64,000 nucleotides of DNA from an uncultured Clostridia bacterium (GTDB lineage Bacteria > Bacillota > Clostridia > Oscillospirales > Acutalibacteraceae): contig CAMHKB010000001.1 of NCBI GenBank assembly GCA_946185555.1, positions 7,290-71,289 on the forward strand. The letters run 5' to 3'. Each line of letters opens with the position of its first letter. Within the stretch, counting starts at the first letter, position 1. A program made the translations under genes and the position numbers. The notes beneath the pieces were generated by a model. The model ran no database searches. It was not told where the DNA came from and saw only the letters and a program-made list of their open reading frames with translations. This document shows positions 44,194 to 63,772 of this stretch, piece after piece.

Positions 44194-46104
44194 TTATTTT
44201 GAAGCTTTCTTGGTCTTTGCAGTTTTTTCTGGCTTTGGCTTAGGATCATCCTTAACCTCAAAAATTGCAGTACCGAAGGGCGCAAGTTTTATATCAGCAG
44301 AATACTCCCACTGAGCGCAGGGAACAGGTTCTGACTTTATAGGCTCTGCATTTGTTATACCCTTGCCGCCATAGATCTCATAATCTGTATTAAGCACCTC
44401 AGTAAGAGTACAGCTATCACTTAGACCTAACTTATAGTTATCCCATGTTGTATTTGACATATTGATAACCACGGCATATTTCTGACCATCAGTCATTCTA
44501 TAGTATGAAAATACGTTGTGATCTGCGTCATCCGCATTTATCCACAGGAAGCCGTCCTTGTCATAATCCTTCTCATAGAAAGCCGGATTCTTCGTCACAA
44601 GCCCGCCTATCTCACGGAAAAATCTCTGGAAGCAGCGGTGCATTTCATATTCCTCAACAAGGAACCAGTCAAGCTCCTTAGATTCATCCCATTCTCTGAA
44701 CATACCAAGCTCGTTGCCCATAAAGTTGAGAGTCTTTCCGGGATGAGTGAACATATAAGCATAAAGGGATCTTGCCTGTGCAAATTTATTTGCGTAATCT
44801 CCGCCGAACATTTTCTGGACAATAGTAGCCTTTCCGTGTACTACCTCGTCATGTGACAGCGGAAGAATAAACTTCTCGAATCCGAAATAAGCCATAGACC
44901 AGTTGATCTTGTTATGGCTGCCCTTTCTCCAGAGCGGATCGAGCTTCATATACTCAAGAGTATCATTCATCCAGCCCATATCCCACTTATAGTCAAATCC
45001 AAGACCGCCCATCTCAACGGGATCGGTAACATGGGGATAGTCAGAAGAATCCTCTGCAATAAGCATTATACCCTTAAATTCTTCATTAAGTCTGGTATTC
45101 ATCTTCTTGAAAAATTCAACAGAACGGTCATTTACACCTCTGTCCTTATTTCCCATCCAGTAAATACCATTATTGATAGCGTCCATTCTGATTCCGTCAA
45201 AGTGATATGCGTCAAGCCAGAATGCAGCCGCAGAAATAAGAAAGCTCTGAACCTCTCCTCTGGAAACATTGAAGTTATATGTACCCCACTCACTCTGATT
45301 TACATCTGACGGCGGATACTCATACAGATCAGTTCCGTCAAAATGAGCAAGTGAAAAGTTATCTCTTACAAAATGAACAAAGGCAAAGTCTATGATAACG
45401 CCAATTCCTGCCTGATGGCACTTCTCAACAAAAGTCATAAGCTGCTCCGGTGTACCATATCTTGAAGTAGCACTATAGTACATAGCAGTCTGATAGCCCC
45501 ATGAACCATCGAAAGGAAATTCTGCAAGCGGCAGTATCTCAATATGTGTAAAGTTGTTGCCCTTGACATACTTGATAAGCTCATCAGCGATCTCATCATA
45601 TCTGAACCACTGTGCGCCGCCGTCAGCCTCGCTTTTTCCGTAAGGCTTTTTCCATGAACCCATGTGCATCTCATATATACTAAGAGGCTTATCAAAGCAC
45701 TTTGTTCTTGATTTTATCCACTTTTCATCATGGAAGATCCTCTCAGGCGCAATTCTCGTTATTACAGACGCCGTATTCGGTCTGAGTTCACTGTGGAATG
45801 CAAAGGGATCAGCCTTATCCACAACTCCTCCGCCCTGCTGATAAACTCTGAACTTATAAAGCTGACCAACCCATGCGTCAGGTATAACAAGCTCATATAC
45901 ACCGTTCGGCAGTCTGTTCATCGGATGATATCCTCCGTTCCATCCGTTGAAATCACCAACAACATCAACACCATGTGCAGAAGGCGCATATACTCTGAAC
46001 ATTATACCCTTGTCCTCATTTTCAGACACAGGGTGCGCACCAAAATATTTATACGCATTAGTTGATATACCCTTATAATATTCATCCATTGAGAAAGCAG
46101 CCAT
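44194..46104 (-). CDS. glgB: 1,4-alpha-glucan branching enzyme
   Basis: 636 aa with the GH13 motifs DFAFVHF, GIRMDA, IAEDSS and LSHDEVVHGK, plus an N-terminal CBM48-like region. Confidence 0.9.
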   Translation of the reverse strand: MAAFSMDEYYKGISTNAYKYFGAHPVSENEDKGIMFRVYAPSAHGVDVVGDFNGWNGGYHPMNRLPNGVYELVIPDAWVGQLYKFRVYQQGGGVVDKADPFAFHSELRPNTASVITRIAPERIFHDEKWIKSRTKCFDKPLSIYEMHMGSWKKPYGKSEADGGAQWFRYDEIADELIKYVKGNNFTHIEILPLAEFPFDGSWGYQTAMYYSATSRYGTPEQLMTFVEKCHQAGIGVIIDFAFVHFVRDNFSLAHFDGTDLYEYPPSDVNQSEWGTYNFNVSRGEVQSFLISAAAFWLDAYHFDGIRMDAINNGIYWMGNKDRGVNDRSVEFFKKMNTRLNEEFKGIMLIAEDSSDYPHVTDPVEMGGLGFDYKWDMGWMNDTLEYMKLDPLWRKGSHNKINWSMAYFGFEKFILPLSHDEVVHGKATIVQKMFGGDYANKFAQARSLYAYMFTHPGKTLNFMGNELGMFREWDESKELDWFLVEEYEMHRCFQRFFREIGGLVTKNPAFYEKDYDKDGFLWINADDADHNVFSYYRMTDGQKYAVVINMSNTTWDNYKLGLSDSCTLTEVLNTDYEIYGGKGITNAEPIKSEPVPCAQWEYSADIKLAPFGTAIFEVKDDPKPKPEKTAKTKKASK

Positions 46105-50453: not shown

Positions 50454-50977
50454 TACTTAGCTCCCCCTTCCTCATCCATATACTTCTTAAGGATCTTTCC
50501 GACTTCCTTGGGGGTAAGCTTTCCATATACATCCTCATCGATCATCATTACAGGTGCAAGACCGCACGCACCTACGCAGCGGCAGGAGTCGATCGAAAAC
50601 AATCCGTCCGGTGTACATTCGCCGCTCTTTATGCCGAGCTGACTCTCTATCTCGGCAAGGATCTTATCCGATCCCTTAACATAGCAGGCTGTACCGAGAC
50701 AGACACTTATCTTGTGTTTGCCCTTTGGTGTGAGACTGAAACGTGAATAGAATGTTGCAACGCCGAATACCTCACTGAGTGACACGCCAAGTCCGTCAGC
50801 AACCATCTGCTGAACCTCTATCGGGAGATAACCATATATCTCCTGTGCCTCATGGAGTACGGGCAACAATGCTCCGGGGACGCTCTTATTCTGCTCGATA
50901 ACAGACATAAGCTGCTCCTGCTGAGCCTTTGTTCCCTGGAAGGTTAGGGAATTTTCTGCCATAGGATATTCCTCCAT
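50453..50977 (-). CDS. hydC: NuoE-like 2Fe-2S subunit (HydC)
   Basis: 174 aa: ALLPVLHEAQEIYGYLP...ISVCLGTACYVKG...CRCVGACGLAP. The 1-nt start/stop overlap with hydB implies translational coupling. Confidence 0.9.
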   Translation of the reverse strand: MEEYPMAENSLTFQGTKAQQEQLMSVIEQNKSVPGALLPVLHEAQEIYGYLPIEVQQMVADGLGVSLSEVFGVATFYSRFSLTPKGKHKISVCLGTACYVKGSDKILAEIESQLGIKSGECTPDGLFSIDSCRCVGACGLAPVMMIDEDVYGKLTPKEVGKILKKYMDEEGGAK

Positions 50978-51175: not shown

Positions 51176-52789
51176 TCACTTATTGTTTTCTGAACTTAAA
51201 AGCTTGCGGCATTCTGTCGGTGCATTCCATGGAAGCAGCTCTTCTATACTTCTTACATTATTTGAGTAGTTCTTCAGAAAGTACACAATATATCTTTGTG
51301 CATCAAGGTTACACGCCTCCAGCGTCCTCAGTATACTCATCATTATCATAACTCTGTGATATCCGCTGTTTTCCTTCAAAAGCCTGGGATCTCTCTGGTC
51401 AGTCCCAAAAACATTCAGTTCCGAAATACATCTTGCATTGTCAAATTCTGTTCTTGAATCACTGTAGAACATATTGAGTTCATCTGCATTTTTCAGAATA
51501 AATTCAAAGATTTCTCCCATACCGCCTTCTTTTTCAGATCTCTGCCACGTCAAAGCCCTCTCAATAATGCCATCAGTAAGATCCATACAGTTTGAACGGC
51601 GTACAGTAAGCCTCATTTCTTCATCAACATTTTCTTCATCCCTTATAACTGCTTTTATCTGACTTATTTCAGAAATACATTCAGAAGCCTCACCCATATT
51701 ATCAAAAGCGTCTTTTCCGTTCCTTATCTGATTTATCAGTCTTTCAGCTTCTCCCCACATCGGTATGACCTCAAATTTTCTTTTCTGAAAGCTGAATAGT
51801 CCTGTTCTGTCAGTATGCAAAATTCCGCTGTAATCCTTTAGGAATGATAAATGTGCTTTTTCCTTATTTGCCGGAACATCCTTTCCGCTGTCAAATACAA
51901 CAATATGCTTTTCGTCAGAATAAGCGGTACAGTATGCGAACATATTCAATCCGCCCTTATCAGCAACAGCGCCGTCACTTTCATTTACAGTACATACCGG
52001 TACTCTTTTACAGACTGCTGTAATAAATCCTGAGTTCAGCAATTCTTCACGCAGTCTGTTATAAAGCGGTTCAAAATAAACATCACATACCTCATTTATG
52101 ATATATCCGAAAAAGCTCCTCGGCAGTTCAAGCTTTTTTGCTCTCCAGCACATCTCCAGACTCATCAAAGATGTATTCATCAAAAGCTTTCCGCAAATAA
52201 TATATGCCGCCATTTCAGGAGTAACAGATCCTTCTCTTATTACAGATCTTTTGCCCACCACAGAAGCGTACATGTCAAGTATAACTTTTTTACATTTGCT
52301 GCATTCAGCAACAGGAAATGCTTCATCCTTTACTCTGAATATTTTATCATCCAAATAAAAAGATGTTCTGATTTTTCCTCCGTGAACCATACACAGACTG
52401 CCGCAGGAACTGCATCTTCCGGAAAAATATACAGGATAATATCTTACGGCAGTGTACTCTGCTGAAGGTGTTTCGCCTTTTCTGACTGCTCTATATATAT
52501 TTCCGACAATTCCGCTTACATCTGACATGCCGAACTTTTTTCCGACATAATCAGATTCATTATACATCCTGTCAAAGGCTTCAGAGATGATATTCTGTCT
52601 TACGGAAATATCACCTTTTACAATAGTCTTATATTTTTCAAGCTCCTTTTTAAGACTGGCGTTTTCCTGTTCCAGCTGAAGACATCTCAATCTTGCCGAT
52701 TGGCTCAGATAATTTTCTGAAAGAATACTGCTGTACTCTTCAAACGATAATATTCTGGAATTGTCTTCTATTTCATCCATATTAAGCAT
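51176..52789 (-). CDS. IS66-family transposase-like protein, apparently degenerate (solo, no accessory ORFs or inverted repeats seen)
   Basis: 537 aa, colinear with IS66 Tnp. It has an N-terminal leucine-zipper-like coil (LQLEQENASLKKELEKYK) and a zinc ribbon CSSCG...(about 35 aa)...CSKCKK. The segments FEPLYNRLREELLNSGFI, FLKDYSGILHTDRTG and LEACNLDAQRYIVYFLK...LLPWN mirror conserved IS66 blocks. The expected DET and AER catalytic positions are not conserved by eye. Confidence 0.5.
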   Translation of the reverse strand: MLNMDEIEDNSRILSFEEYSSILSENYLSQSARLRCLQLEQENASLKKELEKYKTIVKGDISVRQNIISEAFDRMYNESDYVGKKFGMSDVSGIVGNIYRAVRKGETPSAEYTAVRYYPVYFSGRCSSCGSLCMVHGGKIRTSFYLDDKIFRVKDEAFPVAECSKCKKVILDMYASVVGKRSVIREGSVTPEMAAYIICGKLLMNTSLMSLEMCWRAKKLELPRSFFGYIINEVCDVYFEPLYNRLREELLNSGFITAVCKRVPVCTVNESDGAVADKGGLNMFAYCTAYSDEKHIVVFDSGKDVPANKEKAHLSFLKDYSGILHTDRTGLFSFQKRKFEVIPMWGEAERLINQIRNGKDAFDNMGEASECISEISQIKAVIRDEENVDEEMRLTVRRSNCMDLTDGIIERALTWQRSEKEGGMGEIFEFILKNADELNMFYSDSRTEFDNARCISELNVFGTDQRDPRLLKENSGYHRVMIMMSILRTLEACNLDAQRYIVYFLKNYSNNVRSIEELLPWNAPTECRKLLSSENNK

Positions 52790-52828
52790 ACAAGTCCCAC
52801 TCCTGCATCTTCGCTTTATTATGACAAA

Positions 52829-52854
52829 GACCGCAGCTGTTTATCACTGCGGCC
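52829..52854 (-). terminator. possible terminator after ntpD
   Basis: CCGCAG (52831-52836) pairs with CTGCGG (47-52 of the same decade block, 52847-52852), with one further outer pair. It is followed on the minus strand by TTTGTCATAATAAA. Confidence 0.45.
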
Positions 52855-52862
52855 TTACATAG

Positions 52863-53522
52863 TCATTGTTTTTCAGAATAATGATGAGCCTTTTCAAGCA
52901 GCATATCCTTGACCTTCATAAGTCTTGTACGGCTGCTCCTGTCATTTTCTTCAAGCTTCATTGAAATATACTTTATCGTTTCCTCATATCTTGGGATCAT
53001 AACATGTTCAAGCGAGTTAACACGCCTTCTTGTTTTTTCTATCTCCGCAGCCATCAGCTCGCAGCTTTTCTCCATCTCCGCAAGCCTGATAAGCTCCGGA
53101 AGAAGATCATTAAGCGATGTTACCGCATCGTCAAGCTCAAATGATGTAAAAGCAAACCCATAGGGATATATATCATTTTCATCAGAGCTTTCACTTACAG
53201 CAGAGAAAACAGGGACATCAACACTCATCACATTTTTCTGTCCGATATCAATACCCGTCTGCTGTTTCGAGGACATAAGAGAAGACTCTAAAGCTTCCCT
53301 GCTCATTACAGCACCTGCATTTGTAAACGCAGCACCGCAGGCTTTCAGCTTTTCCTCCACCTGATCCCTCAGCTTCTTATTCTCCTGTACAAGCTCAATA
53401 AACTGCCTCATAAGCTCGTCACGCTTGTCCTTAAGCATCTTGTGACCTCTTCTTGCTGTCTGGAGCTGTTTTTTTAGCTTTGTCATCTGCATTCTTGTCG
53501 GGTTCACATTCATTACAGCCAA
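52863..53522 (-). CDS. ntpD: V-type ATP synthase subunit D
   Basis: 219 aa: MNVNPTRMQMTKLKKQLQTARRGHKMLKDKRDELMRQF... is the canonical V/A-type D (central stalk) N-terminus. Confidence 0.9.
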   Translation of the reverse strand: MAVMNVNPTRMQMTKLKKQLQTARRGHKMLKDKRDELMRQFIELVQENKKLRDQVEEKLKACGAAFTNAGAVMSREALESSLMSSKQQTGIDIGQKNVMSVDVPVFSAVSESSDENDIYPYGFAFTSFELDDAVTSLNDLLPELIRLAEMEKSCELMAAEIEKTRRRVNSLEHVMIPRYEETIKYISMKLEENDRSSRTRLMKVKDMLLEKAHHYSEKQ

Positions 53523-53540
53523 TACGAAAACCTCCCGACT

Positions 53541-54914
53541 TTACTGTTTTCCATAATATTCATCAAGCATATCGTCCTTGATTCTCTTAAGCTCACTTCT
53601 CGGAAGAATTTGCAGCAGCTTCCATCCGGTATTAAGAGTATCCTCTATTGTACGGTTAGTAGTATAGCCCTGTGAAACATACTGTCTTTCAAACTGCTCC
53701 GCAAATTCAGCATATTTCTTGTCTATATCAGTAAGTGCTGCTTCGCCCAATACTATCATAAGCTCTCTTGCTTCCTTGCCTCTTGCATAGGCTGAGAAAA
53801 GCTGGTTCATAGTAGCGGCATGGTCTTCTCTTGTCCTGCCCTTGCCTATACCCTTATCCTTAAGACGTGAAAGAGACGGCAGAACATCTATAGGCGGCAT
53901 TATACCCTTTCTGTAAAGCTCACGGCTGAGGATTATCTGTCCCTCTGTGATATATCCGGTAAGGTCAGGTATCGGATGGGTCTTATCATCCTCCGGCATG
54001 GTAAGTATCGGAATAAGTGTTATGGAACCATTCTTGCCCTTCTGTCTTCCGGCTCTTTCATAAAGAGTAGCAAGGTTAGTATACATATATCCGGGGTAGC
54101 CTCTTCTTCCGGGTACTTCCTTACGTGCAGCCGAAACCTCACGCAGAGCGTCAGCATAGTTTGTAATATCCGTCATGATGACAAGAACGTGCATTCCCAT
54201 ATCAAATGCAAGGTATTCAGCAGCCGTCAGAGCCATTCTCGGTGTTGCAATACGCTCGATAGCCGGGTCGTTTGCAAGGTTCACAAACATTACAGTCCTG
54301 TCTATAGCGCCTGTTTCCTTGAACGACTGAACAAAGAAGTCAGACTCCTCATATGTTATACCCATTGCGGCGAATACAACAGCAAACTGCTCATTCTTTC
54401 CTCTTACGGCTGCCTGTCTTGCAATCTGGGCAGCAAGCTGTGCATGAGGAAGACCGGAAGCAGAGAAAATCGGCAGCTTCTGTCCTCTTACAAGAGTATT
54501 AAGACCGTCAATCGCTGAAATACCGGTCTGTATAAACTCCTGTGGATAGTCTCTTGCGGCAGGGTTCATAGGCGTACCGTTTATATCAAGACGCTTTTCC
54601 GGAATAATAGCCGGACCGCCGTCTATAGGATTTCCAAGACCGTCAAATACACGGGACAGCATATCACCCGATACAGGCAGCTCCATTGACTTGCCGAGGA
54701 ACCTTACCTTTGACTGGGCAAGATTGATACCGGCAGCTGAATCAAAAAGCTGTACAAGAGCATTAGTGCCTTCTACCTCAAGTACCTGACAGCGGCGTAT
54801 CTCACCGCCCGGCAGTTCAATTTCTCCAAGCTCGTTATAGGTAACGCCTTCAACATCCGTTACCATCATAAGAGGACCGGCAACCTCTTTTATTGTACGG
54901 TATTCCTTTGGCAT
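53541..54914 (-). CDS. ntpB: V-type ATP synthase subunit B
   Basis: 457 aa: [15 protein letters not shown]...[14 protein letters not shown]...[22 protein letters not shown]. Confidence 0.9.
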
Positions 54915-56680
54915 CAGTCCTCACTCCTTTCAATAACATCCTTTATTTCCTTATCCATAATAGCCTTTATCGACTCAAATTCCTGATCTATCTGATTTTC
55001 GCTTTCATACTTGAATCTGCCTATACGTTCTCTTACAAGCATACCCACAAGCAGATTTATATCAGCTCCTGCCTGCAAAGCCTCAAGTGACTTATCATAG
55101 CAAAGAAGAATAGCTCTCATCATAAGAACCTGCTTTTTAATTGATGTATATGTATCTGTTGCGTCAAAAGCATTCTGGTGCAGATAGTCCTCTCTGATAG
55201 CTCTTGCAGTTTCAAGCTTGAGTCTGTCAGAAGCGGAAAGTGCGTCCATACCTACAAGGTTTACAATTTCCTGTAGTTCGGCTTCATCCTGAAGCATATT
55301 CATAAGTCTGCCCCTGAGCTCCATAAAGTCCTCCGAAGCATTTTCTTTGTACCACTTTGAAAGCTGATCTGTATACAAAGAATAGCTTGTCAGCCAGTTG
55401 ATAGCCGGGAAGTGACGTCTGTACGCAAGGTTAGCGTCAAGACCCCAGAACACCTTTACTATTCTCAGAGTAGCCTGAGATACCGGCTCGGAGATATCAC
55501 CGCCTGGAGGAGAAACAGCACCGATAACGGAGAGTGCGCCCTCTGTTTCCTTCTGACCTCTTACTATTACACGTCCGGCTCTTTCATAGAACTGAGCAAG
55601 ACGGCTGCCAAGGTATGCAGGATAACCCTCTTCACCGGGCATTTCTTCAAGACGTCCGGACATTTCACGAAGAGCCTCAGCCCAGCGTGATGTTGAATCC
55701 GCCATAAGAGCTACTGTATAGCCCATATCTCTGAAATATTCAGCAATCGTTATACCTGTATAAATTGACGCTTCACGTGCGGCAACAGGCATATCAGATG
55801 TATTTGCGATAAGAACAGTTCTTTCCATAAGTGAGTTTCCTGTTTTCGGGTCTTTAAGCTCCGGGAACTCATTAAGAACGTCCGTCATTTCATTGCCGCG
55901 CTCGCCGCAGCCTATATATACTATTATATCCGCAGCAGCCCATTTTGCAAGCTGATGCTGTACAACTGTTTTACCTGAACCGAAAGGACCCGGAACAGCT
56001 GCTACACCGCCCTTTGCAATCGGGAAAAGAGTATCAATAACTCTCTGACCTGTGGTAAGCAGTATATCAGGAGAAAGCTTTCTCTTATAAGGTCTGCCTA
56101 CACGGACAGGCCACTTTGTCGCCATACAGATATCCTGCTTTTTGCCGTTATTTTCAACAACAGCGACTGCATCATCAATTGTGTAATCGCCCTCTTTTAT
56201 CTGTCTGACAACACCGCTTATCTTATCCGGTACAAGTATCTTATGAAGTACTGCATGGGTTTCCTGAACTGTACCGATTATGTCGCCCGGCTCAACCTTA
56301 TCTCCAACTTTGACTGTCGGACAGAAATGCCACTTCTTCTTATGATCCAGTGACGGCACTTCAACACCTCTTGTAAGGTTGTTGCCGACCTGTTTCATTA
56401 TCTCATTCAGCGGTCTTTGAATACCGTCATAAATAGCTCCTATAAGACCGGGACCAAGCTCAACAGAAAGCGGTGCTCCTGTAGACTCAACTTCTTCGCC
56501 CGGACCAAGACCGGAAGTCTCCTCATATACCTGTATAGAAGCCTTATCGCCGTGCATCTCTATGATCTCACCGATCAGTCTTTGTTTACTTACACGCACA
56601 ACGTCAAACATATTTGCGTCACGCATTCCCTCTGCAATTACAAGAGGTCCTGCCACCTTTGTTATTATTCCGTTTGCCAA
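54914..56680 (-). CDS. ntpA: V-type ATP synthase catalytic subunit A
   Basis: 588 aa with Walker [44 protein letters not shown] start at 56680 after GAAGGGGTG, and a 1-nt overlap with ntpB. Confidence 0.9.
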
Positions 56681-56702
56681 ATTCTACACCCCTTCTATTT
56701 AT

Positions 56703-59700
56703 TTAAAAATCCTTTTTTCCCTGATCAAGACGTTTAGGCATGTTTTCCTCCAGAGCAAAGGTCGTAGATTTAGTTACGCTGTGCATTGAATAATACAGTG
56801 CCTTGCCCGCAGCATCAAAAAGCTCCTCGAACGACTGACCGTCATCAGGATATATGCTTATTCCAACCTTGCCTTTTACGCTGACCTCTTCCTTATCATC
56901 TCTGAATGTATTATCAAGGGCAGCAATTATTGACTGCGCCTTTTCAGTAAGCTTGGTACGGCTGCCCAGACCCTTCACAAAAATAAGGAACTGAGACCCG
57001 TTAATTCTTCCTATTATATCGCTGTCCCTGAAAAGCTCCCTGACATTTTCAGCTGACTCCTTCAGAACAGCATTTGCAAATGGTTTTCCAAATTCCTTCT
57101 CAACACGGTCGAATCCGCATATTTCAGCAACGATTACCGCATGAGTTCCGGAAACACCTTCATCATAAAGATAGCTCTTTATCTTATTCTCAGCCGCCGT
57201 CTTATTATACAGATTAGTTATATAATCTGTTCTGTCTTTTCTTGAGCTGTCCTCACTCATAGTAGAACGCTCTTCTGAGACATCTGCGCATACGGCCATT
57301 ATCTTTGCCGGAACACCAGCGGCATTTCTCACTGCTACAAAATGTATCCTGTTCCAGACATAAGTCTCGTTATTTGCATTATATACACGAACCAGACATT
57401 CTGTATCATCGCTTTCAGACCGTGCAAAATTTATCTTCTCAATAAACTTCTTCACATCATCTGAATGCAGCAAGCCTGATTTTCTGATATTTTTCACAAA
57501 TTCAAATACCGGCGGCTTATATCCGTACATTTTTTCAAAAGAACCCGAAAACTTCACGCTGTCAAGTCTCGGTATCCACTCAAAGATAAATGACCTTGTC
57601 TGTTCAAGTATCTCATCATACAGCTTGTCGCTCATTTCAAGTGAATTTTTCTTTCCTGAATCCAGAGCCGGATACAGCCTTTCATCTCCGTCAGAACTTG
57701 TAAAAATAGAAACAAACTCATCACTGCTGAGAAATTCCTGACTGTAGATACCGAACGACGTTCCCGTTCTTTTGATAACCTGCTTTATTACCTCATTATC
57801 GGTATGTACAGGAAAATATGTATATACGCCTGCCCCGGCAAAGCAGTCCATCAGGCAGACAGCCGCTTCAACAGGTATCAGACCATCCGATATTTCAGTA
57901 ACAAATGATGTAGAAAAAGTTATCCTGTCCACCAGATGCTTAGTGAATATCTTGGTACTTACGCAGTTCATTCCCACATTATATACGCCTATCTCAAAGC
58001 CATGACCTCTCAGAATTTCAGTAAATTCCACAGCCCTTCTCATATCCATCTCATTGAGCATATCCTGAGTCAGGTTTATGCAGACATTGTGACAGTTTAT
58101 CGGATAGAAGCTAAGTATGTCCTCAAGCACTTTTGCAACAACATCCCCGTCGTTTCCGCTGAATATTGTCGTAACTGTCAGTTTAGGCAAAATTATGCAG
58201 TCCTGCTCAAACTTATATATAACTGAAAAAATACGTCTCAGGCTGTTAAGGCTCACAGCGGTGATATTTGTTGTGCCGTAAAGAGACGCATAAACATCAT
58301 CAAAATCATAACCTTCATCTTCATTATCCACAGAGGTCTCTATAACATCATATGATACAGCCATATCAGTACTACTGTCAAAAGCAGGAATGAAATGCCG
58401 CTCAAAATCTACGACATGACTATTAAGCTCTCTTCCGTTTACAAAGGTACTCAGCTCAAAGCTGTCACGCATATTGTCATTATAGAAAAGATACATATTC
58501 TTTCCGTTTATCTTTCCTATGTCAACAGCCTTTGTAGCGTTGGCAAAAAGTTTATCAAATGTCTTGCCGTACTTCGGATATTCAGCAACACCAATGCAGG
58601 CCGAAAGCTCAGGGTATGTAACACCGTCAAATTCATATATCTTATGAAGCTTTCTGAAAATATTGTCAACTATAGAAATAGTTTCCTCTTTTGAAGGAAC
58701 ATCCTTTACAAACACAATGAAATTATCGTCCTCTACCCTGCCAGTTATGCTTGACTCGCTGAACTGCTGACGAAGAATACTTCCGATATCCTTAAGGATC
58801 TCATTTCCGAAACGGTATCCTGTTCTGCGGTTAATACTGCGGAACCCGTCAATATCAATAAGTATCAGCAGATGAGTGCCGTTCCTTCCGGAGTTGGCTA
58901 TAAAATCGCTTACCTCATTTTTCAGACCATTATAGTTCCACAGTCCTGTAACAGGGTCTCTGTCAGTCAGTATCTCATCAAGACTTGAGGTAACAGTACT
59001 GTGACTCAAAGTCTCGATACTTACAAATATCTTTGATACCGCTCCGTCCTCCTCAACAGGAACAGCAGTACACCTTACCCCGGCATAAATATCGCTGCCA
59101 AGCTTCATAGGACATTCAAGTACTATTCTCTCATTGCCGTTTTTTAATTCCCCGACAATATGCTCCGTCCGGAAAGCACGTCTGAATATATTCCTGTACT
59201 CCTCAGACACAAGCTCTCCCAGAAGCATAACAGCCTCTGAATAATTCTTCGGTTCATAACCGACAAGATCATTGAAGCTTCCCTTCCTGTCCAGTGTGAT
59301 ATCCTTTTTTATGTCAAACTCAAATACATAATCAGAAACACGGTTGAGTATCTCGCCGTTCTTTTTCACTGATTTCTGCATTTCTTCCTTTTGATTTTCA
59401 ATAGTACGGATAAGCTGTTCCCTGTCCATTTTACGGTAGATATCGCGGCTTTCCTTTTCAGTATCTTCCGTAAGCTTTGTTTCGTCGCCCTTAGACAATC
59501 TGCTGTCATCATGATTGACATCAGCGTACTCCTGCGCAAGAGCTTTAAATTCGCCCAATGACGCAGAGAAACACTCCATCATTTCATCGGAAAATTTTCC
59601 GCAGGCACCTGTTCTTATCATATCTACCGCCTGCTCATGAGAAAAAGCCGCTTTGTACGGTCTTTCGCTTGTCAGTGCGTCATAGCAGTCCGCAACCGAT

Positions 59701-60605
59701 ACTACCTGAGCCCAGATAGGAATTTCATCGCCTTTCAGACCGTCAGGGTATCCCATTCCGTCATACTTTTCATGGTGATAGCGGCATATATCATAGCAGT
59801 ATGTGAAATATTCATTCTTTTCCACCGTATCAAGCTGATCAAGCAGATCACAGCCCTTGACGGTATGCTGCTTCATCACCTTGAACTCATCGTAGGTAAG
59901 TCTTCTCGGACTGAGCAGTATAGAATCAGGTATTGCTATTTTTCCGATATCATGCAGAGACGATGCCGACGCAATAAGATTCATCTTTTCCTCAGTCATC
60001 TTATATTCCGGATGCTTTCCGGCAAGATGCCTTAGCATTACTTCCGTAAATTTCTTTATCCTGTGAATATGTCTTCCCGACTCCACATCACGGTATTCTA
60101 TAACCGTACTCAAAGTGTCCAGCATATCATTATTGATAGTATTGATCTTTTTCTGCTGATCCTTCATAACCTTATTCTGAGACACGATCTTTTCGGTCTG
60201 TTTTTCTACCAGATCCTCAAGCTCGTTTTTATGCGAATAAAGCTCTACCAGATTGCCGACTCTTTTCTGTATCACAAAAGGATTCACAGGCGAAGAAACA
60301 ACATCGCTGAAATGCAGATCAATATTCATCTGCTTCATACGGGAGCTGTTGTTATTCAGAATAAGCAGCACCGGAATATTCTCAAACACCTTAAGATTAG
60401 TCAGAGTTCCGACTATCTCCTTTGTGAAGTTTTTAGCAATACTCTCATTTATCAGTATAATAGATATACTGTTCCTATATTGCAATATCATCTGAAAAGC
60501 TGTTTCACTTCCTGAAGCCTGCACGATCTCAAATTCAGAGGAAAAAATTTCGTGGATAATCGACTTGTTCATCTCTGTATTATCCGCAAGCAGCAACTTT
60601 TTCAA
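56703..60605 (-). CDS. multidomain c-di-GMP signalling protein: receiver-like domain, HD-GYP, degenerate GGDEF, degenerate EAL-like, second degenerate GGDEF
   Basis: 1300 aa. Residues 1 to about 120 are CheY-like, but the acceptor position reads IILINESI. HD-GYP is intact (SLHDIGKIAIP, YHHEKYDGMGYPDG). GGDEF domain 1 has GRVEDDNFIVFV at the GG(D/E)EF site. The central region follows an EAL scaffold with INLTQ, YNVGMN and RITFS in place of EiTE, DDFGtG and KiD. GGDEF domain 2 has GRINGSQFLIFV. Confidence 0.8.
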   Translation of the reverse strand: MKKLLLADNTEMNKSIIHEIFSSEFEIVQASGSETAFQMILQYRNSISIILINESIAKNFTKEIVGTLTNLKVFENIPVLLILNNNSSRMKQMNIDLHFSDVVSSPVNPFVIQKRVGNLVELYSHKNELEDLVEKQTEKIVSQNKVMKDQQKKINTINNDMLDTLSTVIEYRDVESGRHIHRIKKFTEVMLRHLAGKHPEYKMTEEKMNLIASASSLHDIGKIAIPDSILLSPRRLTYDEFKVMKQHTVKGCDLLDQLDTVEKNEYFTYCYDICRYHHEKYDGMGYPDGLKGDEIPIWAQVVSVADCYDALTSERPYKAAFSHEQAVDMIRTGACGKFSDEMMECFSASLGEFKALAQEYADVNHDDSRLSKGDETKLTEDTEKESRDIYRKMDREQLIRTIENQKEEMQKSVKKNGEILNRVSDYVFEFDIKKDITLDRKGSFNDLVGYEPKNYSEAVMLLGELVSEEYRNIFRRAFRTEHIVGELKNGNERIVLECPMKLGSDIYAGVRCTAVPVEEDGAVSKIFVSIETLSHSTVTSSLDEILTDRDPVTGLWNYNGLKNEVSDFIANSGRNGTHLLILIDIDGFRSINRRTGYRFGNEILKDIGSILRQQFSESSITGRVEDDNFIVFVKDVPSKEETISIVDNIFRKLHKIYEFDGVTYPELSACIGVAEYPKYGKTFDKLFANATKAVDIGKINGKNMYLFYNDNMRDSFELSTFVNGRELNSHVVDFERHFIPAFDSSTDMAVSYDVIETSVDNEDEGYDFDDVYASLYGTTNITAVSLNSLRRIFSVIYKFEQDCIILPKLTVTTIFSGNDGDVVAKVLEDILSFYPINCHNVCINLTQDMLNEMDMRRAVEFTEILRGHGFEIGVYNVGMNCVSTKIFTKHLVDRITFSTSFVTEISDGLIPVEAAVCLMDCFAGAGVYTYFPVHTDNEVIKQVIKRTGTSFGIYSQEFLSSDEFVSIFTSSDGDERLYPALDSGKKNSLEMSDKLYDEILEQTRSFIFEWIPRLDSVKFSGSFEKMYGYKPPVFEFVKNIRKSGLLHSDDVKKFIEKINFARSESDDTECLVRVYNANNETYVWNRIHFVAVRNAAGVPAKIMAVCADVSEERSTMSEDSSRKDRTDYITNLYNKTAAENKIKSYLYDEGVSGTHAVIVAEICGFDRVEKEFGKPFANAVLKESAENVRELFRDSDIIGRINGSQFLIFVKGLGSRTKLTEKAQSIIAALDNTFRDDKEEVSVKGKVGISIYPDDGQSFEELFDAAGKALYYSMHSVTKSTTFALEENMPKRLDQGKKDF

Positions 60606-60880
60606 TATAATTACCCCCTGAGCAGAGCATTAATAGTATCGTTAATCCGCAAGATACACCATGCTCATTATTCAATAATTTCCTAACATAGATTATACAC
60701 TTTCATTTCCCGTTTGTATACAGTTTTTTGTATTTTTGTCAAATACAAAAAATATTAAAACGATTTTTTGTTGCTTTTGTATATGAACATGCAAATATAA
60801 TGTATAAAACTGTAAATCATTGAATAAAACTGAACCTCAGGCTTATCCTTTCCTCAAAAAAATAAATTATCAATACAATA

Positions 60881-60913: not shown

Positions 60914-61567
60914 TTAATTTCCTCTCATTATATCCATAGCTGATTCCGGATCATCAGCCTTGAAAACACCAGTACCCGATACTGCAACATCTGCGCCGGC
61001 ATCCGCTGCCTGCCTTGCGGTTTTTACAGATATACCTCCGTCAACCTCCACAAGCACATCAAGAGACCGCCTTTTTATCTCCTGCTTTATTGCGCTTACC
61101 TTAGGCATCATATCAGCCATAAACGACTGCCCGCCAAATCCCGGTTCAACAGTCATAACAAGCACCATATACACCTTATCAAGATAGGGAAACACTGCCT
61201 GCGCCGGAGTTTTCGGCTTTACAACAACTCCCGGTCTGACACCAAAGCTTTTTATTTTATCTATCACCTCATCGGGATCACAGTCTGCCTCCACATGAAA
61301 TGTAATGATATCTGCCCCGGCTTTTGCAAAGGGTTCTACATAGCTCAGCGGATCATCTATCATAAGATGTACATCAAAGGGCAGCTTCGTATAAGGACGG
61401 ACAGCCTTGACTATCCCCGGACCTATTGTAAGATTAGGTACAAAATGCCCATCCATTACATCAAGGTGAACAAAATCAGCTCCCGCCTTGTCTATCCGCT
61501 GAACCTCTTCGCCCATCCTTGCAAAATCACAGCTCAGAAGAGACGGCGCTATCTTCATACTTATCAT
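60914..61567 (-). CDS. rpe: ribulose-phosphate 3-epimerase
   Basis: 217 aa: IAPSLLSCDFARMGEE...HLDVMDGHFVPNLT...DVHLM...VNPGFGGQ-like (EPGFGGQSF)...EVDGGI. Confidence 0.9.
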   Translation of the reverse strand: MISMKIAPSLLSCDFARMGEEVQRIDKAGADFVHLDVMDGHFVPNLTIGPGIVKAVRPYTKLPFDVHLMIDDPLSYVEPFAKAGADIITFHVEADCDPDEVIDKIKSFGVRPGVVVKPKTPAQAVFPYLDKVYMVLVMTVEPGFGGQSFMADMMPKVSAIKQEIKRRSLDVLVEVDGGISVKTARQAADAGADVAVSGTGVFKADDPESAMDIMRGN

Positions 61568-61588: not shown

Positions 61589-63772
61589 TCATGAAAGCTT
61601 TCTTGCAGCAATTGACACTATTATCATAGCTGCACACCAGAAGCCTATGTACAGAAGAAGCTCCACACTTCCGAGCTTTGCAAAGCCCGAAACAAAGGCT
61701 ATTATTGTAACAAGAATAAAACCAGCAATTATGGATAAATACTGTACTATCTTGGCAATTGTAATAGTAGACCTTATCCTTATACATCCTGCAACAGCCT
61801 TCGCAAAGGAAGAAAGCCTGCCGTCAGTTACGAGATATGCTCTTGAAGATTTTTCCTTGCCGCTAAGCTCCTCATGGCAAGCCTGTCCGACCACTGTAGG
61901 CAGAATCTTTATACATTTCGGATAAAGACCAAACTTCTCTGCAATATGCTTCTGATTGACATTCGGATCTAAGGTTCTCACAACGAAATTCACTCCGCTG
62001 TCTTCAAGCTCTCTCAGTCCTTCAGCTATAGCCCTGTCTACCTTGTATGTAAGAATGAACATGACAGCAACCTCGCCTGCGACCGAAATATAAACTATTT
62101 CGTTTCCTCTTTTGCGGTATCTTGCTTCTATCGACTCATCAGGCAGACGTATATTATGCTTGACAAAAAGCTCTCTTCTGCCGATAAGTATCCTGTTGCC
62201 GCTGCACCAGCCTGAAAGTCCCATATCGTCCACATATGATACGCTTTCATACTCCGGCAGATCAACCTTTGACTGACGTACTATAGTTTCAAACACATGG
62301 GTAAGCGGTCCGTTTACAGCAAATGTCATGGACGCTCCAGCCGAAATAGCTTCACGAAGCTTGCTTTCATTAAGGGTCTTCATACCGCTTAGGACTATAT
62401 TACCCTTGGGATAGAGGTCAGACGATTCAAACATAATGGTATTGGTATCGCTGAACTGCTTAACGGCTTCATAGCCTACTATCATAGCACCGCTGCGGTT
62501 TGCTGACGCACAGAGGTTAAGCATAGGAATATTCACTGCTAACAGACTGCACATCGGCAGGGTTATACAGGACGCCATCGCAAAGAACGACACGCCTCCT
62601 ACAAGATCTGACGACACAATACCATAGGTCACAGCAGCTGCAAGGGAGATAAATGCAAAAATTGGTGCCAGTACGGCAGAAAGCTCTTCGACCGGATCTG
62701 ACGCATACGACAGCTGAAGGAAATTGCTCATAAATTCAGACAGTTTGCTGTATGCAATTATCGGTCTGCGTGAGGACAGACCGCTTACAAATCTGTCCGC
62801 ATTTTCTGAATTTGTATATATCTTACCGGCATATTCAGCCTTATCGCTGCGCAGGAAACGGAAGTTATCCGCTGTTCTGCGTATTATCAGAAGCTTGCCC
62901 ATACTGTTCAGAAGCAGCGCCAGTATCAGCAGCGGAACATAAATATGATAGGTTTCGTTCAGAAATACATCCGGCTGGAAAAGCGATACAATAGACTGTA
63001 CAGCAGCTGCAAGCGATGCAACTGCAAGCGGCGTATCACTGTTTCCCCTGAACCTTTTCAAAGGAGTAAAACCGTTGAATATAGGAAATCTCGAAAGATA
63101 AACAGAAACAAGGAACAGCAAAAACATTATAGCAGAATATACCAGCCAGCCGTTTTTCATATTATTTACGAATATCTGAGGCATGGTTTTGGCAACTACA
63201 ACGGTAATTATTGAACCAAGACAGGTACAAAGCAAAACAAGTGTTCGTACAAATACCTTGCTGAAATTCTCGTTTATATCATCTCTTATTTCTCCGGCAT
63301 CCTCTGCCTTTGAGTAATCGGATATTTCTGTCTTTACGACCTCTTCCTCTTCCTCCTCGTCAAATCTGTCACCCTCATAGTCAAAAATATCTCTGAATCT
63401 GAATTTTTTCTTTTCATTTCTTTTTGACTTATCAGAAGCTTTTGCGGAAGAACGAACAGCCTTTTCCTTTTGCTTTACCGGTGCAGTCTTTTTCTTCTTA
63501 TTTTCCTCACCGTTTATCTTTGTGACCTTTGGAATGTGCTCCGGCGGCTTATGCGCTGAATTTGTCTTTTTTTCCGGCGCATCGGCATTAATATGTACAG
63601 GCTCTGATATCTTCACAGGCTTTTTTACGGCTGACGGTCTGACAGGCTTTTTCACTTCCTGGGATGGTTCTGACGTTACCGGCTTTTCAGGCTCTGACTC
63701 CTTTCTCATCCGTCTGGTACTCTCGTATTCAGCCTTGAGAGTTCTGCTGAACTTGCCTGCCATAACAACCAA
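61589..63772 (-). CDS. P-type (P1B-like) ATPase homologue with degenerate catalytic motifs and a Lys/Glu-rich disordered N-terminus; frame stays open to the window edge
   Basis: The order of TM helices and P/N-domains resembles a heavy-metal ATPase. NTIMFESSDLYPKG sits where DKTGTLT is expected, VVRTLDPNVN where TGDN is expected, YLVTDGRLSSFAKA where GDGxNDxP is expected, and SCITLPMCS where the CPC helix is expected. The same frame has no stop between 63773 and 64000, so the true N-terminus may lie beyond the window. Confidence 0.6.
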   Translation of the reverse strand: MVVMAGKFSRTLKAEYESTRRMRKESEPEKPVTSEPSQEVKKPVRPSAVKKPVKISEPVHINADAPEKKTNSAHKPPEHIPKVTKINGEENKKKKTAPVKQKEKAVRSSAKASDKSKRNEKKKFRFRDIFDYEGDRFDEEEEEEVVKTEISDYSKAEDAGEIRDDINENFSKVFVRTLVLLCTCLGSIITVVVAKTMPQIFVNNMKNGWLVYSAIMFLLFLVSVYLSRFPIFNGFTPLKRFRGNSDTPLAVASLAAAVQSIVSLFQPDVFLNETYHIYVPLLILALLLNSMGKLLIIRRTADNFRFLRSDKAEYAGKIYTNSENADRFVSGLSSRRPIIAYSKLSEFMSNFLQLSYASDPVEELSAVLAPIFAFISLAAAVTYGIVSSDLVGGVSFFAMASCITLPMCSLLAVNIPMLNLCASANRSGAMIVGYEAVKQFSDTNTIMFESSDLYPKGNIVLSGMKTLNESKLREAISAGASMTFAVNGPLTHVFETIVRQSKVDLPEYESVSYVDDMGLSGWCSGNRILIGRRELFVKHNIRLPDESIEARYRKRGNEIVYISVAGEVAVMFILTYKVDRAIAEGLRELEDSGVNFVVRTLDPNVNQKHIAEKFGLYPKCIKILPTVVGQACHEELSGKEKSSRAYLVTDGRLSSFAKAVAGCIRIRSTITIAKIVQYLSIIAGFILVTIIAFVSGFAKLGSVELLLYIGFWCAAMIIVSIAARKLS

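Follow-up and report, generated by a model that had tools for sequence, protein, structure and literature searches.

The 64-kb stretch of DNA analyzed here (the window) comes from a metagenome assembly and belongs to an uncultured Clostridia bacterium from the rumen of cattle. The occurrence of its sequence is almost confined to bovine gut metagenomes, and the closest named relatives of the organism are metagenome-assembled genomes (MAGs) of Ruminococcaceae/Clostridiales. The window encodes three subunits of a V-type ATPase (V-ATPase) in the order ntpA-ntpB-ntpD, directly behind a gene of the cyclic di-GMP (c-di-GMP) signaling type (Table 1). We consider it probable that these three genes are the distal part of an ordinary V-ATPase operon that has been split in two and that the organism encodes a normal V-ATPase.

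NtpA contains the Pfam domains ATP-synt_ab_N, Xtn, ab, and VA_C, with the A-specific insert (ATP-synt_ab_Xtn, PF16886) at residues 108 to 193, the Walker A motif GPFGSGKT at residue 231, GERGNEM at residue 259, and another motif at residue 328. It thus has the P-loop, the catalytic Glu, and the insert of a catalytic A subunit, and its TTG start codon is common to the relatives. The start of ntpB overlaps the stop of ntpA, and NtpB and NtpD are the noncatalytic B and the central-shaft D subunits of a bacterial V/A-type ATPase. The subunits I, K, E, G, C, and F, which belong in the same operon in such systems, are not encoded at this locus. A tblastn search of the whole window with a relative's proteins found no G, I, K, E, C, or F (best E-value, 0.33), and A, B, and D matched at 81 to 95% identity. 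The original prediction, made from the letters of the window, that the catalytic genes stand here with no stalk or membrane subunit genes nearby is therefore borne out.

All three are genuine, intact genes on which purifying selection is strong. Compared with the sister-species locus L086, the ratio of nonsynonymous to synonymous substitution rates (dN/dS) is 0.021 for ntpA, 0.010 for ntpB, and 0.028 for ntpD, at dS values of 0.72 to 0.98, and these ratios are no higher than those between species with intact operons. NtpB shares 99% amino acid identity with the sister species. The catalytic motifs of NtpA are intact, and across the positions with a conservation of 95% or more in a set of 120 close homologues, NtpA has a single private change, the conservative K421R; the median of that set is also one. 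Furthermore, ntpA, ntpB, ntpD, and the signaling gene are all represented in contigs from cattle metatranscriptomes. Such normal constraint is hard to square with a catalytic head that has no partners.

In the relatives, the operon is intact. A search with NtpA gave 80 genome loci, and in every one whose contig is long enough, I-K-E-C-F lies directly 5′ of A-B-D. Four closer relatives were drawn from a protein collection, namely, L085 and L086 (97 to 98% amino acid identity in NtpA and 86.7% nucleotide identity to the window over A-D) and L092 and L099 (94% identity in NtpA). All four carry the order AraC-G-I-K-E-C-F-A-B-D-IS66-like; L085, L086, and L092 run on into hydCBA, and the stretch of L099 ends within the IS66-like gene. 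The window is collinear with the sister species from ntpA down to approximately position 44900. On the other side of ntpA, none of the genes that the relatives have 5′ of A-B-D is present in the window, and the signaling gene, rpe, and the P-type-ATPase-like gene are found near the ntp operon in no relative examined. Approximately 20 kb upstream of the relatives' operon (L094 to L096) contains AraC, pyrK-like, gltD-like, tilS-like, pyrG, carAB, and ANTAR genes, none of which occurs in the window. Because the relatives' upstream genes are absent from the window and the window's upstream neighbors are absent beside the relatives' operons, the gene order points to a lineage-specific rearrangement breakpoint and not a small deletion. 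We rejected a small deletion that would have fused a nearby signaling gene to ntpA, since the 20 kb upstream in the relatives contain neither rpe nor a GGDEF gene.

The break lies just in front of ntpA. The 22-nucleotide (nt) gap between the TAA of the 1,300-amino-acid (aa) open reading frame (ORF) and the TTG of ntpA reads ATAAATAGAAGGGGTGTAGAAT and contains the ribosome-binding site GAAGGGG. As originally described, this short gap has no terminator-like hairpin; we found neither a terminator-like site nor a significant fold in it (z = +0.70). Homology to L085, L086, L092, and L099 by blastn ends at position 56694/56695, 14 nt before the TTG. Of the ancestral ntpF-ntpA spacer of 88 to 125 nt, only the last 14 to 16 nt, including the ribosome-binding site, have been kept. 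Taken with the intact operons at the 80 loci and in the sister species, this end of homology supports the earlier suggestion that the operon was split by a rearrangement, and no relative shares the adjacency that the window has upstream of ntpA.

The ntpF-ntpA spacer has features of its own. It is unusually long in this genus, at 88 to 125 nt versus approximately 12 to 50 nt in more distant relatives (the intervals are 9913 to 10000 in L086, 7286 to 7410 in L099, 2683 to 2740 in L097, and 1892 to 2016 in L098), and it is built of short tandem-like repeats that vary from one species to another. The spacer coincides with the breakpoint and may be a fragile or recombination-prone site.

Since the window is a metagenome assembly, the junction was verified in other data. 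Logan contigs from three studies span it (X1, positions 55650 to 60741; X2, 56606 to 59880; X5, 56598 to 56950) with 0 to 4 differences from the window. As an assembly artifact, the contig would be a chimera joined via a 31-nt stretch of ntpA (approximately 56597 to 56627) that is common to abundant relatives, and numerous contigs from several runs indeed break at 56597 to 56635, where the depth of the relatives is very high. However, unitig-like contigs of runs X2 and X5 hold the stop of the signaling gene, the 22-nt gap, and the first 75 to 83 nt of ntpA contiguously, which makes a chimera unlikely, and a single contig of run X1, 5,092 nt long, extends 1,030 nt into ntpA. The depth is alike on either side of the junction (7.94 versus 8.33 in X1), and a canonical, F-linked copy of the exact NtpA is not on record. 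A look-up of the exact NtpA in the protein collection gave no match at all, since most assemblies contain the gene in fragments. Hence, the junction is real, and we regard the chance of a chimera as minimal.

Where are the genes for the other six subunits? The sister species' subunit C served as the query against the protein collection (5.8 billion proteins), and we inspected the gene neighborhoods of the closest clusters. The cluster at 98.5 to 100% is the L086 species, with a canonical operon, and a canonical operon is also found in the cluster at 78% (L099). An 88% singleton, L098, was rejected as the missing half because its F is joined to A in the canonical manner. The contig of an 89% singleton, L097 (K-E-C-F), was found once in the whole collection and ends 58 nt past F. 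The cluster at 76% has 8 members on approximately 14 contigs, including NCBI MAGs, and its prevalence resembles that of the window species. Its loci L106 to L109, from four runs and all bovine, read DHODB-AraC-G-I-K-E-C-F followed by rpsT and pflB, without A-B-D, and their homology to canonical operons ends exactly at the stop codon of F. The genes of this cluster are intact, with dN/dS values of 0.01 to 0.12 that equal those of canonical operons; a cluster under such selection therefore needs A-B-D in trans, from elsewhere in its genome. The window type is the only detached A-B-D seen in the genus and has the same habitat as L106 to L109. The window contains no rpsT or pfl gene that would conflict with rpsT-pflB beside the other half, and the dS values are compatible with the window and L106 being one lineage. 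In the simplest reading, the L106-type cluster and the ntpA-B-D genes of the window are likely the two halves of one split operon.

We hypothesize that the starting state was a canonical Enterococcus-type ntp(G)IKECFABD operon with ntpA-B-D as its distal third. In the rumen species, a rearrangement would have broken this operon within the F-A spacer, leaving 14 to 16 nt of the old spacer with the ribosome-binding site before ntpA and setting ntpA right behind the stop of an unrelated HD-GYP/degenerate-GGDEF gene. G, I, K, E, C, and F would have been retained at another locus, most probably AraC-G-I-K-E-C-F-rpsT-pflB. We infer that both halves reside in one genome and that their subunits, made in trans, would assemble into an ordinary membrane-bound, ion-pumping V-ATPase. 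Both new junctions (signaling gene to ntpA and ntpF to rpsT) are co-directional, and a simple inversion would therefore not fit; an insertion that placed the rpsT-to-signaling-gene segment in the F-A interval, or an equivalent translocation, would fit the geometry. The string TTTAAATAA is common to both junctions at the breakpoints and is possibly a microhomology, too short to carry weight.

The promoter of the relatives' operon lies 5′ of G, and ntpABD has lost it. Presumably, the three genes are now transcribed either by read-through from the promoter of the signaling gene or by initiation at a promoter within that gene, near its 3′ end. A scan returned a promoter-like site for each of these modes. 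The site upstream of the signaling gene is a candidate promoter for a signaling-gene/ntpABD transcript, and the weaker site, which lies within the 3′ end of the signaling gene 110 to 138 nt upstream of ntpA, is a possible alternative promoter of ntpABD; matches of the latter kind (9/12) are common in this AT-rich region, with 32 found versus 20 expected. One RNA contig (X26, 56687 to 56837) extends from the signaling gene beyond the stop codon and ends 7 nt short of the TTG of ntpA. Co-transcription of ntpABD with the signaling gene is plausible.

Several observations weigh against parts of this model. The window NtpA is sister to that of L086 (dN of 0.015, versus 0.036 to 0.039 to L099), and the L106 proteins are approximately equidistant from those of L086, L099, and L092. 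By these distances, L106 may represent a different, though congeneric, lineage, and the singleton L097 appears to fit the phylogenetic position of the window better than L106 does. Moreover, no RNA contig covers the start of ntpA in eight metatranscriptomes, in which coverage is low and the assembly graph forks at the 31-mer in common with relatives. The ancestral neighbor of the signaling gene was not found in a scan of metagenome contigs or among contigs at 80% likeness; the scan likewise returned no orthologue of the signaling protein, and the contigs at 80% likeness gave no informative loose ends in the sister species' flank 3′ of the signaling gene.

L098 is a mosaic. Its ntpF protein is identical to that of L099 (99.7% nucleotide identity), and its ntpC is 90% identical to that of L099 and 88% identical to that of L086, a pattern that indicates recombination between species within the ntp cluster. 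With recombination in the operon, tree congruence is a weak test of the link between the window and L106. On balance, we think it rather probable that the other half is present in the genome of the window organism.

Table 1. Features of the ntpA-B-D locus, with the corresponding IS66-like ORFs of relatives (positions in the window unless a relative is named)
Feature	Position	Strand	Description
ntpA	54914-56680	minus	588 aa, TTG start; V-type ATPase catalytic subunit A; NF003220, 922 bits
ntpB	53541-54914	minus	457 aa; V-type ATPase subunit B; NF003235, 787 bits
ntpD	52863-53522	minus	219 aa; central-shaft subunit D; NF001543, 315 bits (cutoff, 290); PF01813
Terminator-like hairpin 3′ of ntpD	52827-52856	minus	11-bp stem, -22.4 kcal/mol; followed by CUUUGUC
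IS66-like ORF	51176-52789	minus	NF033517, 82 bits (cutoff, 180)
IS66-like ORF in relatives	L085/L086, 13876-15507; L092, 14103-15788; L099, from 11380		
Signaling-gene stop/ntpA junction	56681-56702	minus	22 nt; holds the native ntpA ribosome-binding site
Rearrangement breakpoint	~56694-56702	minus	End of homology to relatives
Signaling gene	56703-60605	minus	1,300 aa; stop 22 nt before the ntpA TTG
Weak promoter-like site	56790-56818	minus	TTGATG-17-TATTAT; 9/12 consensus matches, scan only
Promoter-like site	60692-60720	minus	TATACA-17-TATAAT, upstream of the signaling gene; 10/12 consensus matches, scan only
rpe	60914-61567		Upstream of the signaling gene
P-type-ATPase look-alike	61589-63772 or longer (toward 64000)	minus	Weak family scores

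The remaining neighbors of ntpA-B-D largely agree with their first description. Profile matches confirm rpe and, weakly, the P-type-ATPase-like gene further upstream; the latter scores only 61 bits with CopA, against a cutoff of 1,316, and is without a Pfam E1-E2 ATPase match. Downstream of ntpD, the expected hairpin (z = -3.97, with 0 of 200 shuffles folding equally well) is followed by the IS66-like ORF and then by hydC-hydB-hydA, which encode an A6-type [FeFe] hydrogenase.

The IS66-like gene had been taken as a relic suggestive of the rearrangement, a view that the comparison with relatives does not bear out. All four sister species with an intact operon also have the gene there, between ntpD and hydC, and in at least five congeneric species it lies at this position and is intact, with 537 to 561 aa. 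Its proteins are only 30 to 39% identical between species, versus 93 to 99% for the flanking genes, and it is without cover by RNA contigs, whereas the adjoining hydC is highly covered. It has none of the marks of an IS66 insertion sequence, that is, a full-score transposase, mobility, and a variable site. It is therefore a positionally fixed, hypervariable gene and not a mobile insertion sequence or the relic of a recent insertion. Because it is also present beside intact operons, it provides no evidence for the split, and we rejected it as the agent. One contig of run X1 joins position 50974 to position 52622 and skips 1,647 nt, which is most of the IS66-like gene (the shorter side of the join has only 20 nt), and X1 and X2 have loose ends at approximately 50952 to 50975 and 52641 to 52661; this may reflect a strain with a different allele at the hypervariable site.

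The protein encoded upstream of ntpA consists of a pseudo-receiver domain (…IILINESI…), an HD-GYP domain, a degenerate GGDEF domain, a degenerate EAL domain, a PAS domain, and a second degenerate GGDEF domain, in this order. Pfam matches are HD_5 (PF13487, 95.7 bits) at residues 200 to 333, two GGDEF domains, PAS_3 at residues 1018 to 1105, and a weak EAL at residues 819 to 907. The HD_5 domain has the residues of an HD-GYP phosphodiesterase (HD218 and HHEKYDGMGYP at 277 to 287). The GG[DE]EF motif of diguanylate cyclases is lost in both GGDEF folds, of which the first reads VEDDNF and the second NGSQF; the second keeps an RxxD site (RDSD). The original prediction of a c-di-GMP signaling gene thus holds for the type and length of the gene, with the qualification that both GGDEF domains are degenerate and that HD-GYP is the sole catalytic-looking domain. 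From its motifs, the protein is likely a c-di-GMP phosphodiesterase/receptor and not a cyclase. Nothing links it functionally to the ATPase beyond the new adjacency.

Could the missing genes have been lost altogether? A rearrangement might have removed G-I-K-E-C-F, leaving A-B-D as orphans that have not yet decayed or that are kept for a membrane-independent role. The absence of stalk and membrane genes from the 64 kb agrees with such a loss, as does the fact that the collection of 5.8 billion proteins contains only two C-subunit entries at the expected distance (88 to 89% to the C of L086), both single contigs and one of them canonical; recombination between sites in direct orientation would, in addition, excise the DNA between them. 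However, dN/dS values of 0.01 to 0.03 over a dS of approximately 0.7 to 1.0 and the one conservative change in NtpA argue against a long unconstrained period, A-B-D is expressed, judging from the metatranscriptome contigs, and the same genus and habitat also harbor a complementary orphan G-F cluster. From the biochemistry of V1, A3B3D that lacks F, E, G, and C is not known to have a role. We consider a true loss unlikely. A more specific form of it starts from the original suggestion that an A3B3D head may be expressed together with the second-messenger protein, independently of an ion channel. In this form, the membrane and stalk genes are truly lost, and A3B3D is selected as a soluble ATPase that shares a transcript with the HD-GYP/I-site c-di-GMP protein and may be under its control, in analogy to the binding of c-di-GMP by the homologous ATPases FliI and HrcN. 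This idea found no positive support. The adjacency on which it builds is the product of a breakpoint that no relative shares, and the orphan G-I-K-E-C-F cluster exists; we regard it as very improbable.

Many Clostridia carry more than one rotary ATPase. The genome could accordingly harbor another ntp operon that is complete and includes A-B-D, in which case the trio in the window would be a leftover partial copy. However, the trio corresponds in position to the relatives' operon as its orthologue and shares the D-IS66-like-hydCBA synteny, and selection on it matches that in intact operons in strength, where a redundant copy would be expected to relax. We give little credence to a redundant remnant. 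An operon split into two functional halves thus remains our preferred reading: the split is real and clean and seems to be fixed, constraint on the head genes is complete, and the detached partner cluster is very plausible.

The A, B, and D genes of the window are close homologues of those in the Enterococcus hirae ntpFIKECGABD operon for the Na+-V-ATPase and the Thermus thermophilus atpGIKECFABD operon, with the same order and the same tight spacing, and congeneric species of the window organism have, like these, a full set of nine genes (G-I-K-E-C-F-A-B-D). Unlike in those operons, the six proximal genes are detached in the window, and A-B-D lies behind a signaling gene without the operon promoter. 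Rotary ATPases encoded at two loci are known, as in the F-type atp1/atp2 clusters of cyanobacteria and the separate F1 and Fo operons of Rhodospirillum/Rhodobacter, and some archaea have scattered A-type ATPase genes. As we propose for the window organism, the subunits of one enzyme come from separate loci in these cases and are assembled in trans. However, the known two-locus splits are old and clade-wide and fall between functional modules, whereas the split in the window is specific to a species or lineage and falls between F and A, so that the V1 subunits E, G, C, and F remain with the membrane genes. We found no description of an F-A split of a bacterial V-type operon in the literature searched. 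Within the scope of that search, the F/A split in a V-type operon appears to be new; genes at two loci were already known for F-type and archaeal rotary ATPases.

With respect to the signaling gene, c-di-GMP binds the ATPases FliI, HrcN, and ClpB2 (Trampari et al. 2015, PMC4591828). As homologues of the catalytic subunits of rotary ATPases, FliI and HrcN provide the only precedent for c-di-GMP acting on this fold; binding to any V-type or F-type enzyme was not shown in that study (PMC4591828). The adjacency in the window is a product of rearrangement and is shared by no relative.

The split operon would not represent a new machine and is of modest practical significance. A caution for metabolic calls from MAGs does follow from it, since in such calls a V-ATPase scored as incomplete may reflect a split operon and not absent genes. 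If both halves are confirmed in one genome, the window organism would provide a recent natural case of a bacterial V-ATPase operon broken between ntpF and ntpA. The enzyme would then tolerate the separate transcription of its catalytic head and of its stalk and membrane genes, with expression of the head placed downstream of a c-di-GMP signaling gene, and the locus would serve as a natural experiment for studying rotary-ATPase stoichiometry and assembly, as well as the recruitment of a promoter by a broken operon.

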